From the sequence record OR544954: 64,000 bases of DNA; one strand, given 5' to 3'. The notes under the pieces were generated by a model, which was not told the origin of the DNA, ran no database searches, and saw only the letters and a list, made by a program, of their open reading frames with translations. Both the position numbers and the translations under genes were made by a program. This document shows positions 1,218 to 58,724 of this stretch, piece after piece; position 1 is the stretch's first letter, and the number at the start of each line of letters is the position of its first letter. This DNA is from Escherichia phage vB_EcoM_EP32a.

Positions 1218-1305
1218 AATATCTCCTTAGTTACCTATTATTTATTACGCTTTATAAAATTAATGTTAGAATTAACTCTCTTATACTGAATTGAAAGGAA
1301 AAATA

Positions 1306-1827
1306 ATGGCACACTTTAACGAATGTTCACAACTTATTTCTGGTGTTGATAAAGCAGAAGAAGCTTATTTTAATGCTCTGATTCACGAAGATAAAGACCC
1401 ACTGCAGGTAATGCTTGATATGCAGAAATCTTTACAGGTTCGTTTGGCAAATGATAAGCCTGAACATAACAAACATCCTGATGAATTGGCTACTGCTGGC
1501 GATGTTGTTGATTGGCTGCGTAATCAGAAAGATTATATTGATGATGAATTCCGTGAACTGCTGACTTCACTTGGCGGTATGAGCAATGGTGAAAAAGCCG
1601 CCAGCAGTGTATGGAAGCCGTGGAAAGCACAACATGCTGAATATCGTAATCGTCGTATCGATGAACTGTCTCCTGAAGACCAGCTTGAAATTAAATTCGA
1701 GATGATTGATATTCTGCACTTCGTTCTGAACATGTTCCAAGGTCTGGGACTTTCTGCTGAAGAAATCTTTAAACTTTACTACTTGAAAAACCAACACAAC
1801 TTTGAACGCCAGGATAATGGTTACTAA
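1306..1827 (+). CDS. 56: dCTP pyrophosphatase (dCTPase/dUTPase, gp56-like)
   Basis: ATG at 1306 preceded by AAAGGAAAAA; sequence MAHFNEC...FRELLTSLG...LYYLKNQ matches recalled T4 gp56; ORF track start at 1291 is TTG. Confidence 0.85.
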   Translation: MAHFNECSQLISGVDKAEEAYFNALIHEDKDPLQVMLDMQKSLQVRLANDKPEHNKHPDELATAGDVVDWLRNQKDYIDDEFRELLTSLGGMSNGEKAASSVWKPWKAQHAEYRNRRIDELSPEDQLEIKFEMIDILHFVLNMFQGLGLSAEEIFKLYYLKNQHNFERQDNGY

Positions 1828-3673: not shown

Positions 3674-4255
3674 ATGACATGTCAATCTGAACTTCAAGAA
3701 CGTGAATACCTAACAAATCTGATTGATAGCAAATTCACCCGCCAAGAACAAAACATTCTCTGGGCTTGCACCGATTCTAAGGAAGACCCGGATTTCCACT
3801 ATGAATTAGACCATCTTGTTCGTAAGCATATGACTTCTACAGTACCAGTAGAACTCTACCGCGGTGTAACTCCAGAAGAAGTAGAACGTCTTTCACTTCT
3901 TTCTGTTGGATGCCATTGGTCTCCTGGACGAGTAACATCGTTCACAACTGATTTCAGTACAGCTCGTCAATTCTCCGGGAGATGGGAATATCAGACGTAC
4001 ACTATTCTTAGTCTCAGGAATGCTCCATTCATTTTTGATTACTACCAAAACATGGTTAACATTGTACTTGCCGGAAAGAACCCTAAGCATGTTATGGAAG
4101 AAAAGCGTGTTGACGTCCTAGATATGATTGAATCTGAACAAGAGTACATGGTCTCAGGTATCTCTAGATTTGAGATTGTGGAAATTGAAGACTTAGAATA
4201 TGACCCTTTATCTCGATTATACAAAATCATTCATTTGAAAATGTTGAATTTTTAG
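3674..4255 (+). CDS. ADP-ribosyltransferase, ModA/ModB family
   Basis: R-S-ExE triad: LYRG, SFTTD, ESEQE; size and synteny (between soc and dda) match T4 modB/modA. Confidence 0.7.
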   Translation: MTCQSELQEREYLTNLIDSKFTRQEQNILWACTDSKEDPDFHYELDHLVRKHMTSTVPVELYRGVTPEEVERLSLLSVGCHWSPGRVTSFTTDFSTARQFSGRWEYQTYTILSLRNAPFIFDYYQNMVNIVLAGKNPKHVMEEKRVDVLDMIESEQEYMVSGISRFEIVEIEDLEYDPLSRLYKIIHLKMLNF

Positions 4256-4312: not shown

Positions 4313-4921
4313 ATGTTTATGCCGTATAACGAGTGTGAAATTGAAGAAATGGTTCGTCGTGCTCAAAACCCCGAATATCAAGATGTATTGCAGTACGAAA
4401 TTGATAGTCAATTCAGCGACATTGAACAAAGTGTACTGTGGCAGTGTATGGAAAACAAGCCAGACTGTATTCAACAGGAGTTAAGTTCAATCGTTCGTAG
4501 AAATTGGACGTCTTCTGTTCCTGAGACAATGTATCGTGGAATCTCTAAGAAAACTATGGCTACGCTCCAAGATAAAGGTGTTGGTAGTATTATTAAATTT
4601 GACAGAGTAATGAGCTTCAGCCCAGTGTTCGGTGTAGCACGTAACTTTGCTTCGTATAATTTTTACGGAACATTTAATATGTTCTGCGTCAAAGATGCAC
4701 CATTTGCTTTCAACTTCCGTGAACATATGCTTAATATGATTCTGGCTGCGCCATCTTGTGAGTTCAATGGAGCTTTCCCTGAAGCGACAAGACGGTCTAA
4801 TGCTAGACTTATATCTGACGAATGTGAATTTATGCTCCCTATAGGGACTACACTGCGTGTAGATTCTATTATTCAGGATGGACGTTATACAATCTGGAAT
4901 CTGTCTATTGTCAGTTACTGA
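4313..4921 (+). CDS. ADP-ribosyltransferase, ModA/ModB family (second paralog)
   Basis: R-S-ExE triad: MYRG, SFSP, ECE; tandem paralog of the preceding gene. Confidence 0.7.
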   Translation: MFMPYNECEIEEMVRRAQNPEYQDVLQYEIDSQFSDIEQSVLWQCMENKPDCIQQELSSIVRRNWTSSVPETMYRGISKKTMATLQDKGVGSIIKFDRVMSFSPVFGVARNFASYNFYGTFNMFCVKDAPFAFNFREHMLNMILAAPSCEFNGAFPEATRRSNARLISDECEFMLPIGTTLRVDSIIQDGRYTIWNLSIVSY

Positions 4922-52277: not shown

Positions 52278-52892
52278 ATGTTTAAAGTTAATACTTTTTA
52301 TAAAATGAATTTTAAAAATGGGGATATTACTCCACGCCTTAAAAACATGTTCTCATATGATCTTATCGAGCCTTTTGAAGTTTTAGAAGTTACTGATGCT
52401 GGCTCGGTTTGTGAAATTAGAACGTCTGAAGGTAAAATTTATCAGGCAGGTGTTGGTAAATTCAGACATTGTTTTACTTTAATATTCTCGACCGATTTAG
52501 ATGAGCATTTTATTGAATGTCCTAACCCTAAGGTCCATGAAGTTCCACATCAAGAAACTAAGAAAAATGGCCCACACGAATATACGAAGGTTGAAACTCC
52601 TCACGGCGTGATGTGGCGTCATAACTCTCCTTTTGGAAGTAAAGGAACATTTGCTCAACTGCCTAAACCTTATGACGATGAAAAATATGTAGTAGTCCTT
52701 TTATCTGAACAGGGTACTCAAGACCGTGGATGCCAGCGTTCTGGTTTACTAAGTGAACTTGAAGCTCATAACCAAGCACGTGAATTCGTTGAGAAAAATC
52801 CTGGCTCTGAAGCTCTAGTCATGAAAGCAATTACTCAATATATCACTGCTCAACCTGTTGTTCATCCGGTAGAAATTAATTTCATTAAGTAG
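52278..52892 (+). CDS. hypothetical protein (204 aa)
   Basis: ORF with SD GAGGAAA. Confidence 0.5.
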   Translation: MFKVNTFYKMNFKNGDITPRLKNMFSYDLIEPFEVLEVTDAGSVCEIRTSEGKIYQAGVGKFRHCFTLIFSTDLDEHFIECPNPKVHEVPHQETKKNGPHEYTKVETPHGVMWRHNSPFGSKGTFAQLPKPYDDEKYVVVLLSEQGTQDRGCQRSGLLSELEAHNQAREFVEKNPGSEALVMKAITQYITAQPVVHPVEINFIK

Positions 52893-52922
52893 TTTACATC
52901 CAAGGACGGATTAGAGTATAAT
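52892..52922 (+). promoter_or_regulatory. T4-type early promoter (GTTTAC-N19-TATAAT)
   Basis: -35/-10 pair upstream of ORF 52947. Confidence 0.5.
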
Positions 52923-52946
52923 GATTTCTTTAGTAAGTGGAAAAAT

Positions 52947-53144
52947 ATGAAATTTTTAATAGCACAAACAGTCCAATTAAAAGGTGTTGGAATTCCTGGG
53001 GTGATTTTTAAAGTTCTCCCTGAATTTAAAACCGCCGCTGGAATTATCAATGAAGCGTATGCTGTTCAATGGGTTGATTGGACTTCTGACATACGTATGG
53101 GTAAAGAGTTATCTCCTATTAAAGGGTTGAAACATGTTGAATAA
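52947..53144 (+). CDS. hypothetical protein (65 aa)
   Basis: Small ORF behind a promoter cassette. Confidence 0.45.
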   Translation: MKFLIAQTVQLKGVGIPGVIFKVLPEFKTAAGIINEAYAVQWVDWTSDIRMGKELSPIKGLKHVE

Positions 53145-53352
53145 ATTAATCCAGAAATTGTTTGGTACGGAAATGATTGAAGTTACTTATCGTGTAACCG
53201 ACGTTTTTCCATATTACGCGGAAAACCGTTTAGAACCATACGTTACGTCAATTAAAATGCCTAAAAATGACAGAAATTTATCTATCGAAGACCGTATACC
53301 TGGATACGGACATTGGGCTGATGTTGAAATTATAAGTGTTAAAGATGTCTGA
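53134..53352 (+). CDS. hypothetical protein (72 aa)
   Basis: Overlapping small ORF. Confidence 0.45.
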   Translation: MLNKLIQKLFGTEMIEVTYRVTDVFPYYAENRLEPYVTSIKMPKNDRNLSIEDRIPGYGHWADVEIISVKDV

Positions 53353-53803
53353 ATTAGAAATAAGAAGTAATTTCAAATGGCCGTCATGTGCATTAAGTAA
53401 CTTTGCTCAATGGCCTTTTGTTATGGATGGTATTCAATTCGGAGGTCTTGAAGGATTTCTCCAAGGATGTAAGGTGAAAAATGTTGAACAACAAAGACGT
53501 ATATTTGGGTTGTCTGGATTGGCTGCACAGCAAGCTGGAAGGTCTTACGCAAGAGCTCAGGACCGTGGGACTCTCTTCTGGTTAGGAGTTCCATTTTCAA
53601 GATACTCTGAAGCGTGGAAAGAATTATACACAAATGCATATTTTGAAGCCGCGATCCAAAACAAGGGGTTTCGCGATGCCTTACAAGCCTCTAAAGGAAA
53701 AATTTTGAAGCACAGCATGGCCAGCCACCTAACAAAAGATGATACAATATTAACCGAAGCCGAATTTATTGATGTGTTAAACCTATTAAGAGACTCTTTA
53801 TGA
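53345..53803 (+). CDS. NADAR/YbiA-like (DUF1768) domain protein
   Basis: 152 aa from ATG 53345; LSNFAQWPFVMDGIQFGGLEGFLQGCKV resembles recalled E. coli YbiA FSNFAAWPIKVDGKTWPTSEHYFQAQKF. Confidence 0.5.
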   Translation: MSELEIRSNFKWPSCALSNFAQWPFVMDGIQFGGLEGFLQGCKVKNVEQQRRIFGLSGLAAQQAGRSYARAQDRGTLFWLGVPFSRYSEAWKELYTNAYFEAAIQNKGFRDALQASKGKILKHSMASHLTKDDTILTEAEFIDVLNLLRDSL

Positions 53804-54624
53804 AGCCTACTATTTTGACTGATATTGATGGTGTATGTTTAAGCTGGCAATCTGGACTTCCTTATTTTGCCCAAAAATATAATCTTCCATTAGAACATAT
53901 TTTAAAAATGATTCAGGACGAAAAATTTATTTCTCCTGGTAAACTGTTCAATACCGACGATAACCTTGGTAAACAATTAATAGAAAAATATAATAGCTCT
54001 GATTTTATTCGTTACTTAGCGCCTTATTCGGATGCTCTTCGAGTTATCAATAAACTAAAAGAAGACTATAATTTTGTAGCCGTGACGGCGCTAGGTGATT
54101 CAATTGATGCTCGATTGAATAGACAATTTAATTTGAATGCTTTGTTCCCAGGCGCTTTCTCTGAAGTAATGATGTGTGGTCATGATTCTTCAAAAGAACA
54201 ATTATTTGAACTAGCTAAAACAAAATATAACGTGATTTGTTACGTTGACGATTTAGCTCATCACTGTGACCATGCAGCAGAAATTCTTAATGTACCGATT
54301 TATTGGTTGGCTCGTGGTGAACGTGATGCCATTCCTCGTACTGCACAACGTGTACACACGTGGGATGATATTGAATCTCGTTTGGTTCCACCCGAGCATA
54401 ATTCAGATTCAGATCGTGAAGACCTTTTAAAACGATTGGCGGATTTGCTTAAAGAATCTGGTGCAACAAGTCCAGGTGCATGGCCTAATCAAATTGGTGG
54501 CCCCTCGACAACACGTACTCCATATACCTGGCGAACCCCAGGACCAACTGATATGCAGCCGTGGTGGACGATTCAAAACTTTCCTTTAGATTCGTCTAAA
54601 TGGACTTGGTCTATAAATTGTTAA
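53800..54624 (+). CDS. HAD-like phosphatase/nucleotidase-family protein with atypical Trp/Pro-rich C-terminal tail
   Basis: N-terminal DxDGV motif (LTDIDGV); last ~55 aa compositionally unusual. Confidence 0.45.
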   Translation: MKPTILTDIDGVCLSWQSGLPYFAQKYNLPLEHILKMIQDEKFISPGKLFNTDDNLGKQLIEKYNSSDFIRYLAPYSDALRVINKLKEDYNFVAVTALGDSIDARLNRQFNLNALFPGAFSEVMMCGHDSSKEQLFELAKTKYNVICYVDDLAHHCDHAAEILNVPIYWLARGERDAIPRTAQRVHTWDDIESRLVPPEHNSDSDREDLLKRLADLLKESGATSPGAWPNQIGGPSTTRTPYTWRTPGPTDMQPWWTIQNFPLDSSKWTWSINC

Positions 54625-54633
54625 GGGTTAATT

Positions 54634-54903
54634 ATGTTTGTAGTTCATGATATTACAGATGGCAAAAATACCACACGTGACTACGGTCACGTTAACATGT
54701 TCTTTCGAGACTGGCCATTGTTTCGTTCAGTAAAAGACGCAGAAATATTTAAAGAGTGTGTTGAACAAGGGTTCATCTACATTTCAGAATACTATGTTGA
54801 AGGACTCGGTAAATGGATTACCACTTATCAGAAAACGCTGAAATCGCTTCTAGATGAAGTGGCTTATAATAGAACCGTAACCAAAATCGAGGACATCAAA
54901 TGA
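54634..54903 (+). CDS. hypothetical protein (89 aa)
   Basis: ORF immediately upstream of the ligase gene. Confidence 0.45.
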   Translation: MFVVHDITDGKNTTRDYGHVNMFFRDWPLFRSVKDAEIFKECVEQGFIYISEYYVEGLGKWITTYQKTLKSLLDEVAYNRTVTKIEDIK

Positions 54904-56393
54904 TTTTAGATATTTTAAACCAAATAGCTGCGATCGGTTCTACTAAAACAAAACAGGAAATCCTTAAGAAAAATAAGGACAACAAATTACTTGAACGTGT
55001 GTATCGTTTAACATATGCACGTGGTATCCAGTATTATATTAAGAAATGGCCAGGACCAGGTGAAAGGTCTCAAGCGTATGGTCTTCTTGAATTAGATGAC
55101 ATGTTGGATTTTATTGAGTTCACATTAGCCACTCGTAAACTCACTGGTAATGCTGCAATTAAAGAGCTCATGGGTTATATCGCTGACGGTAAACCTGATG
55201 ATGTAGAAGTCCTTCGTCGTGTAATGATGCGCGACCTTGAAGTAGGTGCTTCAGTGTCTATCGCGAATAAGGTGTGGCCTGGACTTATTCAATTGCAACC
55301 ACAGATGTTAGCATCTGCATATGACGAGAAATTGATTACTAAAAATATTAAATGGCCTGCATTTGCTCAATTAAAGGCCGATGGTGCTCGTTGTTTCGCT
55401 GAAGTTCGCGATGATGGTGTTCAATTCTTTTCTCGTGCTGGTAATGAATATCATGGTCTTACTCTATTAGCGGATGAACTAATGGAAATGACTAAAGAAG
55501 CTCGTGAAAGACACCCTAATGGGGTTTTAATCGACGGTGAATTAGTTTATCATTCATTTGATATTAAAAAGGCTGTGAGCTCAGGAAATGACCTGTCGTT
55601 CTTATTTGGTGATAATGAAGAATCCGAAGAAGTACAAGTTGCGGACCGTAGCACTTCAAACGGTTTAGCAAATAAATCTCTTCAAGGGACTATTTCTCCT
55701 AAAGAAGCTGAAGGTATGGTTCTTCAAGCCTGGGACTATGTTCCTTTAGATGAAGTCTATTCTGATGGCAAAATTAAAGGTCAGAAATACGATGTTCGTT
55801 TTGCTGCTCTTGAAAATATGGCTGAAGGCTTTAAACGAATTGAGCCAATTGAAAATCAGTTAGTTCGTAATCTTGACGAAGCTAAAGTGGTTTATAAAAA
55901 ATATGTTGACCAAGGTCTTGAAGGTATTATCCTTAAAAACCGTGATTCATATTGGGAAAACAAACGTTCTAAGAACCTAATTAAATTTAAAGAAGTTATT
56001 GATATCGCTTTAGAAGTTGTAGGATACTATGAACACTCTAAAGACCCTAACAAATTAGGTGGTGTCGAACTCGTATCACGTTGTCGTCGTATTACAACCG
56101 ATTGTGGTTCAGGGTTTAAAGATACAACTCATAAAACAGTTGATGGTGTAAAGGTTCTTATTCCTTTAGATGAGCGACATGATTTGGACCGTGAACGATT
56201 AATGTCCGAAGCTCGTGAAGGTAAATTGATTGGACGTATTGCTGATTGTGAATGCAATGGTTGGGTTCATTCTAAAGGACGTGAAGGCACTGTAGGTATT
56301 TTCCTCCCAATTATTAAAGGGTTCCGTTTTGATAAAACAGAAGCGGATTCGTTTGAAGACGTATTTGGACCGTGGTCCCAGACAGGTTTATAA
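54900..56393 (+). CDS. 30: ATP-dependent DNA ligase gp30
   Basis: 497 aa; ligase motif I KADGAR; size close to T4 gp30. Confidence 0.9.
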   Translation: MILDILNQIAAIGSTKTKQEILKKNKDNKLLERVYRLTYARGIQYYIKKWPGPGERSQAYGLLELDDMLDFIEFTLATRKLTGNAAIKELMGYIADGKPDDVEVLRRVMMRDLEVGASVSIANKVWPGLIQLQPQMLASAYDEKLITKNIKWPAFAQLKADGARCFAEVRDDGVQFFSRAGNEYHGLTLLADELMEMTKEARERHPNGVLIDGELVYHSFDIKKAVSSGNDLSFLFGDNEESEEVQVADRSTSNGLANKSLQGTISPKEAEGMVLQAWDYVPLDEVYSDGKIKGQKYDVRFAALENMAEGFKRIEPIENQLVRNLDEAKVVYKKYVDQGLEGIILKNRDSYWENKRSKNLIKFKEVIDIALEVVGYYEHSKDPNKLGGVELVSRCRRITTDCGSGFKDTTHKTVDGVKVLIPLDERHDLDRERLMSEAREGKLIGRIADCECNGWVHSKGREGTVGIFLPIIKGFRFDKTEADSFEDVFGPWSQTGL

Positions 56394-56636: not shown

Positions 56637-58724
56637 ATGTCTGAACAATTAAATGAAGTGTTTGAATCTGAAGGCAGTCTTCCTGTCGTCAATTTGAACC
56701 CTAAAGCTAAAGTTCCACAAGTCTGGAAAATTGGTGATATCGATACAAATATTGTAGTTCGTTTATTCTCTTACCTTTCCGAAGGCGATGCTGTAAAACA
56801 AGTTAAACTCGGCGACAAATACGCTCATGTTGTTATTATGAGTCTGTCTGAAAAGGGTAATCTAGCTGAATTGAAAAATGGCCTTGGTCCTGCTCCTATT
56901 GATGCAATCAACACTATTTTCAATACAGTATATGAACAGGTTAAAGCTCTTCGTATGGATGCAGTTCTGTTCCGATTCCCTACCAAGAAATTGAAAGGAC
57001 GTGGACAACAGCTTCAAACTCTTCTTGCTCGTTTAGTTTCTACTAAAACCGGTGGTCGTTTTAAAGTATTGTCGGCAATGTATCAATTCACAGGTAAACA
57101 CACCTATGTGATGATGGTTCGTAAAAATGCCAACATTGAAGATATTAAAGGCATCCCTAACATTAACACAGAGTTGTACACGAAAGTAGATTCTGATGTT
57201 GGCGAAGTTTACGTGAGTAAAAAGACCGGCGAAACGGTCACCAAAGAAACGGCTATCGCTGGTTCTATTGCTGCTGTAGAAGAAAAACGTAAAGATAAGC
57301 CTGTTATTGCTCGTACTAAAATTTCTCGTCGTGCTATTGCAGCAAGTCAATCTTTAGAAGCTGACCGCCAAGAAGGTGAGGTATTCCAGAAATACGAAAA
57401 TTCTGCTAAAGAAGTTAGTGGCCCGGCTACAGCCGAATTACTTCCTGAAGCATATGAAATCGTACTAGCCCAAGCATCATCCACAGCAAAAGGCACTTTA
57501 GTTGCTGATATCGAAAATAAGATTTATAATCGTATTGATGAATCCTTTAGATTTGCTGATGAAGTTTCTTATGGTAGTGTTATTAAGCCAACTTTAGAAA
57601 AGTTTGCTAAGAAAATTAAAACTGAAAAAACAACATCTGTTAAAGCATTAGCTGCTTTTGTTGAAGCTGCAAACGAAATTGCGGACTCTATTAAAGACGA
57701 ATGGTTTGAAGATTTTAGACGTGATAATTTCCAACTGGCTGATGACGTTTTAGCTGAAGTATCTGAAAAAACTTGGAAACAACGTAAATCAGCGTTCTTG
57801 TCTAATGTGATGTATACTTATGCACGAGAATCGGCTAGAGGCACCTTTAATATAACAATGAATCGGGACCCTAAACAATACTCTGTTGCTGAAAAACGAG
57901 CTATTCGCGAATATGCCTCTTCTGCGTATACCGATATCAATAATATGTTGTTAGGTCGTTATAAACCAGATTTTTACGATGTTGCAGATGAAGACGAAGT
58001 TAAACGCGCTATTGATGGTCTTGATTCGGCGTTTTTAAATGGAGACCGTTTACCTGAAGGACTAACGTTATATAGAGCTCAGTCTATCAGAATGCCTATT
58101 TACGAAGCAATGGTTAAAAATAAGGTATTCTACTTCAGAAACTATGTTTCCACTTCACTAGCTCCTATTATTTTCGGTGGGTTTAAAGAGAACGTTGCCC
58201 TTGGACTTGCTCCTGAAGAAGTTCGCAAAGAGCTTAACATTGACAATAATGACGAAGGTGTTACTATTTCTCCTAGTCTGGCAAGTACAGCTATGCATGC
58301 ACCAGAACAAATCCGTGTTAACGTTGGATGGGCTATTGATGGCGCCCATAAAGTTAACGTGATTTATCCGGGACAGTTGAGTAATCACCCTAATGAGCAA
58401 GAAATTATTTTGCCTAGAGGCATTCTCTTGCAGATAAATAAAATTACAGATGCGTCATCTGACACTGGTGCAGGTTTAGAATCCAACCTTAAATTTATTC
58501 AAGCTGAAGTCATGTCCTCGGACCAGTTGGACGAAGCTGTCATTTACGATGGTGATGTTCTCATGGAAACAGGCGAGGTAGTTGCTATGACGGGTGAAAT
58601 CAAATCAGATGAGCCGGTATCTTTTGCCTCATTTGTAGAAAAAACTAGTGCTCCTAAAGGATTGAAATTGTTAGCATCTTTAATGGATTTAGAATCAGTT
58701 CCGTTTAAATTTGTCCAAGGATAG
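56637..58724 (+). CDS. alt: ADP-ribosyltransferase Alt (virion-packaged)
   Basis: 695 aa; R-S-ExE triad LYRA, VSTSL, EQEIILP in C-terminal half; size as T4 Alt. Confidence 0.8.
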   Translation: MSEQLNEVFESEGSLPVVNLNPKAKVPQVWKIGDIDTNIVVRLFSYLSEGDAVKQVKLGDKYAHVVIMSLSEKGNLAELKNGLGPAPIDAINTIFNTVYEQVKALRMDAVLFRFPTKKLKGRGQQLQTLLARLVSTKTGGRFKVLSAMYQFTGKHTYVMMVRKNANIEDIKGIPNINTELYTKVDSDVGEVYVSKKTGETVTKETAIAGSIAAVEEKRKDKPVIARTKISRRAIAASQSLEADRQEGEVFQKYENSAKEVSGPATAELLPEAYEIVLAQASSTAKGTLVADIENKIYNRIDESFRFADEVSYGSVIKPTLEKFAKKIKTEKTTSVKALAAFVEAANEIADSIKDEWFEDFRRDNFQLADDVLAEVSEKTWKQRKSAFLSNVMYTYARESARGTFNITMNRDPKQYSVAEKRAIREYASSAYTDINNMLLGRYKPDFYDVADEDEVKRAIDGLDSAFLNGDRLPEGLTLYRAQSIRMPIYEAMVKNKVFYFRNYVSTSLAPIIFGGFKENVALGLAPEEVRKELNIDNNDEGVTISPSLASTAMHAPEQIRVNVGWAIDGAHKVNVIYPGQLSNHPNEQEIILPRGILLQINKITDASSDTGAGLESNLKFIQAEVMSSDQLDEAVIYDGDVLMETGEVVAMTGEIKSDEPVSFASFVEKTSAPKGLKLLASLMDLESVPFKFVQG

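Follow-up and report, generated by a model that had tools for sequence, protein, structure and literature searches.

The gene at 53345..53803 on the plus strand of the window, by which we mean the whole 64-kb stretch of DNA analysed here, is adfN, the ortholog of T4 gene 30.3, and very probably codes for a functional, minimal stand-alone glycohydrolase of the NADAR fold. The feature is already known, as the ortholog of a characterised protein, and the finding is not new; it carries little weight as a discovery, given that the T4 protein has been described as a guanine-ADP-ribose hydrolase since 2024, was named AdfN in 2025 and is the main T-even counter to DarTG1.

The role of the gene was established by Johannesman et al. 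(Nat Commun 2025), who used RB69 x T2/T4 recombinants to trace the resistance of T2 and T4 against DarTG1 to gene 30.3 and renamed this gene adfN, for anti-DarT factor NADAR (PMC11825919). The gene proved both necessary and sufficient for DarTG1 resistance; once it was deleted, T4 and T2 no longer formed plaques on DarTG1 cells, RB69 was rescued by its expression, purified AdfN stripped ADP-ribose from DarT1-modified DNA, and T4 AdfN was impaired by E36A, by K43A and by truncation of its C-terminus (PMC11825919). T4 AdfN had no effect on DarTG2, which modifies thymidine, gave uninfected E. coli no protection from DarT1 and was of little help to non-T-even phages (PMC11825919). Because uninfected cells are not rescued and non-T-even phages gain little, hydrolase activity alone does not fully explain the mechanism in vivo.

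The 'T4 phage NADAR (gp30.3)' was reported in Toxins in 2024 to hydrolyse guanine-ADP-ribose in vitro, with no rescue in vivo (PMC11125620), and it cleaves guanine-ADP-ribose and not thymidine-ADP-ribose (PMC11125620, PMC12945103). The phage type is absent from the enzymes listed for the reversal of cytidine-ADP-ribose (PMC12945103), and guanine-ADP-ribosylated RNA is also a NADAR substrate (PMC11833690). The T4 ortholog had been placed in the phage-NADAR branch bioinformatically before it was tested (PMC11125620, PMC11825919, PMC11543638). In the methods of the 2024 study the T4 gp30.3 construct spans 'residues 1-208', yet gp30.3 has 152 residues (PMC11125620); 208 aa is, by coincidence, the length of T4 gp61.2 (AdfA).

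Identification of the gene

The 152-aa ORF runs on the plus strand from an ATG at 53345 to a TGA ending at 53803, and its coordinates, like the peptide quoted from it, agree exactly with those given in the earlier note on this DNA. An alternative start, GTG at 53336, lies three codons 5' of the ATG, and the T4 annotation uses the ATG. PF08010 (Phage_30_3, 'Bacteriophage protein GP30.3') is the sole Pfam match of the product, at E=1.8e-69 and over profile positions 1-138 of 138. The PHROGs match is phrog_652, whose function is given as unknown, and no match was obtained for the product in NCBIfam or PADLOC. The gene and the parts of it that matter below are as follows.

53345..53803 (+), adfN, T4 gene 30.3 ortholog, a stand-alone phage-type NADAR domain and very probable DNA guanine-ADP-ribose glycohydrolase; from the ORF, PF08010, identity to T4 and fold matches
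53393..53476 (+), NADAR signature segment LSNFAQWPFVMDGIQFGGLEGFLQGCKV, residues 17-44, beta-hairpin and first catalytic helix; from the YbiA profile alignment
53450..53452 (+), Glu36 codon GAA, catalytic glutamate by T4 AdfN mutagenesis; invariant (PMC11825919)
53471..53473 (+), Lys43 codon AAG, second residue mutated in T4 AdfN; invariant (PMC11825919)
53711..53713 (+), His123 codon CAC, last beta-strand, phage-NADAR hallmark; invariant, model strand 120-123
53756..53797 (+), C-terminal helix, residues 138-151, intact; from a three-way DNA alignment and the model

The product shares 147 of its 152 residues (97%) with T4 gp30.3, which is likewise 152 aa long, and none of the five substitutions (K11R, E89P, I120V, M125I and H128G) falls at an invariant column. 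At the nucleotide level the two genes differ by 39 synonymous and 5 non-synonymous codon changes, with a dN/dS of 0.044, and adfN is therefore under strong purifying selection. Gene order is that of T4 and RB69 (rIII, 30.9, 30.8, 30.7, ..., 30.5, 30.4, 30.3, 30.2, 30.1, 30 (ligase), alt.1, alt), so that 30.4, 30.3 and 30.2 stand next to one another upstream of gene 30. With gp31 ending at ~50450 and the ligase at 54900..56393, the earlier note was right to place the gene in the cluster between genes 31 and 30.

The genome backbone is that of a Mosigvirus (RB69-like) and not of T4. The region is 98.8% identical to Mosigvirus phages such as SA79RD and moha, nucleotide identity to RB69 is ~97% from 53131 onward, and the proteins encoded on either side share no more than 53-66% of their residues with those of T4.

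An out-of-frame gene, 30.3', is annotated in T4 with a length of 75 aa. In this window it is reduced to a 34-aa ORF (53481..53585, +) by an in-frame stop, which argues against 30.3' being a conserved gene, and on account of this interruption it was dropped as a part of the feature.

Neighbouring genes and expression

The neighbourhood of adfN, together with the ADP-ribosyltransferase genes of the window, comprises the following features.

52893..52922 (+), promoter candidate, sigma-70/T4-early-like, TTTACA-18-TATAAT; 11/12 consensus, best in the region
53134..53352 (+), gene 30.4 homologue, 72 aa, 53% identical to T4 gp30.4; its end shares 8 nt with the start of adfN
53800..54624 (+), gene 30.2 homologue, 274 aa; start codon overlapping the stop codon of adfN (ATGA)
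56637..58724 (+), Alt homologue; PF03496, E=2.8e-28
3674..4255 and 4313..4921 (+), two Mod-like ORFs; tblastn to T4 ModA/ModB, E=1e-16 to 5e-28

The promoter candidate lies upstream of the overlapping ORFs 30.5, 30.4, adfN and 30.2, in that order, and phage SA79RD, 98.8% identical, has a promoter annotated at the same site. Promoter-like sites are, in total, no more numerous in the region than chance would give, and for this reason the candidate is only a pointer. The gene may be expressed early, in translational coupling with 30.4 and 30.2, from this candidate promoter near 52893.

Gene 30.2 is annotated as a HAD-like hydrolase in phage moha, and its product had no Pfam match in our search. 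The ~50 N-terminal residues of gp30.2 are identical to T4, and its ~80 C-terminal residues are unrelated and form a Pro/Trp/Thr-rich tail. Further upstream, a 204-aa ORF (52278..52892, +) stands in the place that T4 and RB69 give to gene 30.6. Neither a T4 homologue nor a Pfam match was found for it, window positions 52284..53131 do not align to RB69, and the same ORF is found in other Mosigvirus phages as a 'hypothetical protein'.

As the earlier note had stated, the window does hold Alt (PF03496) and two Mod-like ORFs (tblastn matches). Alt is encoded 2.8 kb downstream of adfN on the same strand. The two Mod-like ORFs are adjacent and without a Pfam match at E<=0.01, and both are nearer to T4 ModB (37.5% and 31%) than to ModA (30%).

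Relationship to the NADAR superfamily

The earlier note had proposed a NADAR/YbiA-like domain, to be checked by a search with PF08719, the Pfam model for NADAR. In our hands hmmscan returned no direct match of the adfN product to PF08719 at E<=10, PF08010 being all that was found, and a single-sequence phmmer search against the PDB returned nothing. Since single-sequence searches gave no link to NADARs, we had to turn to profiles and structures. With a profile of 45 family members, E. coli YbiA (PDB 2b3w) was matched at E=8.8e-4 among 177,635 PDB sequences, so that the resemblance goes beyond chance; YbiA was the sole sequence-profile match in the PDB, and the alignment covers exactly the signature segment. 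Residues 29-56 of YbiA (2b3w_A), FSNFAAWPIKVDGKTWPTSEHYFQAQKF, are identical to residues 17-44 of the adfN product at 11 of 28 positions by manual count, and the YbiA string that the earlier note had given from recall is exact against 2b3w_A. PF08719 itself was matched individually by 18 of the 45 homologues (best E=1.5e-7), and several homologues are labelled 'YbiA (DUF1768 family)' by JGI.

Structure and residues point the same way. The AlphaFold2 model of the adfN product (pLDDT 94, pTM 0.89) has the alpha+beta fold of NADARs, with a helical core flanked by small beta-hairpins, and its best Foldseek match is E. coli YbiA. E36, K43 and H123 are invariant across the 45 homologues, and within the signature segment S18, N19, F20, F25, E36, G37, F38, Q40 and K43 are invariant in all of them. 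In the family profile alignment E36 and K43 fall on a Glu and a Lys of YbiA, and their spacing (7 residues, E-x6-K) equals that of the catalytic E88 and K95 in the E. coli C7 NADAR (PMC11543638). H123 falls within strand 120-123, the last strand, as read from the AlphaFold2 model. The NADAR families are told apart by the residue in the last strand, where YbiA-type proteins carry Glu, DarG1-type proteins Asp and phage-type proteins His (PMC11125620, PMC11543638).

Profile search, fold search and catalytic residues confirm that the adfN product belongs to the NADAR superfamily, and the domain proposed in the earlier note is upheld. The proposed PF08719 check was misleading, as taken literally it would wrongly have led to the NADAR idea being discarded. 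The test asks too much, because the phage branch has a Pfam model of its own, and the negative result is a limitation of the test and not of the NADAR hypothesis.

Homologues in other phages

Homologues of adfN occur in 1510 phage records from many host genera, nearly all of them named 'hypothetical protein'. Their contexts vary, with ligase, helicase or SbcCD-like neighbours in some and tRNA clusters in others. In phage Phi1 the homologue directly adjoins the DNA ligase gene, without 30.2 or 30.1; in Vibrio phage D527 it is followed by SbcCD-like genes, and the distant Aeromonas phage SW69-9 and Ralstonia phage RSP15 carry it within a tRNA gene cluster. The homologue of Klebsiella phage phi1_146002 (4001..4441) is called 'virion RNA polymerase', an evident mis-annotation.

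Integrity of the allele

In RB69 an extra T at position 411 of gene 30.3 creates an immediate stop and leaves a protein of 137 aa, shorter by 15 residues, and RB69 is DarTG1-sensitive because this insertion truncates gp30.3 (PMC11825919). The Mosigvirus phages Bas46 and Bas47, relatives of RB69 with full-length alleles, are fully DarTG1-resistant; in that phage set a full-length 30.3 tracks with resistance, RB69 being the one truncated, sensitive exception (PMC11825919). In a three-way DNA alignment the RB69-type insertion is absent from the window, and residues 138-152 are present and the same as in T4. The T inserted in RB69 follows the equivalent of window position 53754, and the stop that it creates removes helix 138-151. 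The intact C-terminus, the placement of the substitutions away from invariant columns, the purifying selection and the resistance of Bas46 and Bas47 lead us to conclude, with high confidence, that 53345..53803 would encode a functional AdfN.

An island of identity to T4

Over ~53300-53940 the nucleotide identity to T4 is 85-97%, against 33-67% in the flanks, and the edges of the stretch are sharp. This island spans the whole of adfN and runs ~140 nt into 30.2. The dS against T4 is 0.64 for adfN and 1.5-2.3 for 30.5, 30.4, 30.2, 30.1 and the ligase gene. Low dS is likewise found in 30.7, 31 and rIII, from which it follows that the 31-30 region as a whole is a mosaic. A recent transfer of adfN as the source of the 97% identity to T4 was rejected in view of the 39 synonymous codon differences and the dS of 0.64; there is room for an older exchange, because dS in the flanking genes is at least 1.5.

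We think it possible, if unlikely, that the island records a natural exchange of adfN between T-even genera, or else a constraint imposed by a conserved T-even partner. Exchange would parallel the laboratory RB69 x T2/T4 recombinants obtained under DarTG1 selection. Constraint by a T-even partner, if true, would explain why T4 AdfN acts fully only in T-even infections, and a candidate for such a partner would be a neighbour conserved together with AdfN, for instance the N-terminus of gp30.2. As a general obligatory partner of AdfN, gp30.2 was rejected, since the linkage is absent from the Phi1, Aeromonas, Vibrio, Ralstonia and Rhizobium phage loci; it is kept in the T4-like phages of Acinetobacter and Klebsiella.

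Discussion

Among characterised systems, the product described here is closest to T4 AdfN, with which it shares its length, its place in the gene order (between 30.4 and 30.2, ahead of the DNA ligase gene), an intact C-terminal helix and E36, K43 and H123. The two differ in their five substitutions and in their genomes, that of the window being a Mosigvirus and that of T4 a Tequatrovirus. RB69 gp30.3 comes from the same genus-level backbone and has a nearly identical coding sequence, but it is truncated at 137 aa, whereas the window allele keeps the last 15 residues.

The DarG1 antitoxins (BC4488-type, with the E. coli C7 NADAR and the Geobacter lovleyi NADAR, PDB 8bat) have Asp in the last strand, where the adfN product has His123. 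The DarG1 type also has N-terminal elements that form an electropositive DNA channel, whereas the adfN product consists of the 152-aa core only (PMC12945103), and T4 AdfN is no substitute for DarG1 in uninfected cells (PMC11825919). No darT lies beside adfN, its neighbours being 30.4 and 30.2, and PADLOC was negative for adfN and 30.2. YbiA (2b3w) and the Phytophthora NADAR (8bau) are 17-20% identical to the adfN product and have Glu in the last strand instead of His123; YbiA belongs to a metabolic or LexA-regulon context. AdfA (T4 gp61.2) is the other T-even anti-DarTG1 factor and counters the same defence, but it is unrelated to AdfN and acts by binding DarT1 and not by catalysis (PMC11825919). 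The adfA gene is outside the window, upstream of its start, as the window begins inside gene 61; the ORF at 1291..1827 was considered as AdfA and rejected, since it occupies the place of T4 gene 56.

The suggestion of the earlier note that the gene could counter a DarT-type toxin is borne out by experiment for the 97%-identical T4 ortholog (PMC11825919; in vitro, PMC11125620), and the anti-DarTG1 function of this allele is presumably carried over from the T4 protein. After infection of a DarTG1 host, the DarT1 toxin would ADP-ribosylate guanine in the phage DNA and block replication. AdfN would then cleave the guanine-ADP-ribose bond, using Glu36, Lys43 and His123, and replication would be restored, a role like that of an orphan copy of the DarG1 antitoxin.

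Other roles have to be weighed against this one. The main substrate might be guanine-ADP-ribosylated RNA, or soluble ADP-ribose derivatives of other immune systems, so that DarTG1 resistance would be one facet of a wider function. All NADAR families tested, T4 phage NADAR included, de-modify guanine-ADP-ribose RNA (PMC11833690, PMC12945103), Iyer et al. predicted soluble derivatives of ADP-ribose to be the preferred substrates of phage NADARs (PMC9503650), the 1510 phage records with homologues cover many host genera, and some of these homologues lie in tRNA clusters or beside an 'RNA-binding protein'. We nevertheless regard this role as improbable, as the phenotype of the T4 and T2 deletions is specific and complete for DarTG1 (PMC11825919), on RNA the DarG1-type NADAR is more active than T4 NADAR (PMC11833690), and no soluble substrate has been demonstrated. 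A metabolic N-glycosidase of the YbiA type, destroying reactive intermediates of the riboflavin pathway, is scarcely credible here. That activity has been reported for YbiA (PMC11543638), which is the best Foldseek match and the sole PDB profile match of the adfN product, but the last-strand Glu that defines the type is His123 here, the T4 experiments indicate de-ADP-ribosylation of DNA (PMC11825919), and the phage context has no relation to riboflavin.

The targets of Alt and the Mod enzymes are arginines in host proteins. The earlier note had grouped the gene with Alt and the two Mod paralogs as a possible offence/defence toolkit for ADP-ribosylation. This grouping with Alt, ModA and ModB is unsupported, as the Mod-like genes are ~49 kb away and the demonstrated substrate is the guanine-ADP-ribose that DarT1, a host toxin, makes on nucleic acid, not a product of Alt or Mod. 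In the literature we found no functional link between AdfN and Alt or Mod; phage NADARs are reported as early genes co-expressed with ADP-ribosyltransferases, and shared early expression is all that connects them (PMC9503650). That early expression, the nearness of Alt on the same strand, the presence of two Mod-like genes in the window and the recurrence of the adfN-ligase-Alt neighbourhood in an Acinetobacter T4-like phage could also be read as signs that AdfN reverses or edits the modifications made by Alt, ModA and ModB. This is very improbable, however, since the NADAR activities shown are all directed at nucleobase-linked ADP-ribose, on guanine for all and on cytidine for some, the phage type not among these (PMC12945103). 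The distance to the Mod-like genes counts against it as well, and many homologue loci have no ADP-ribosyltransferase nearby. Reversal of the DarT1 modification of guanine in phage DNA is thus the reading that we retain for AdfN.

From sequence alone it can be predicted that this phage should plaque on DarTG1 hosts, unlike its relative RB69. The practical value of the finding lies in annotation, as ~1500 phage records carry a homologue of this anti-DarT factor, almost always under an uninformative name.
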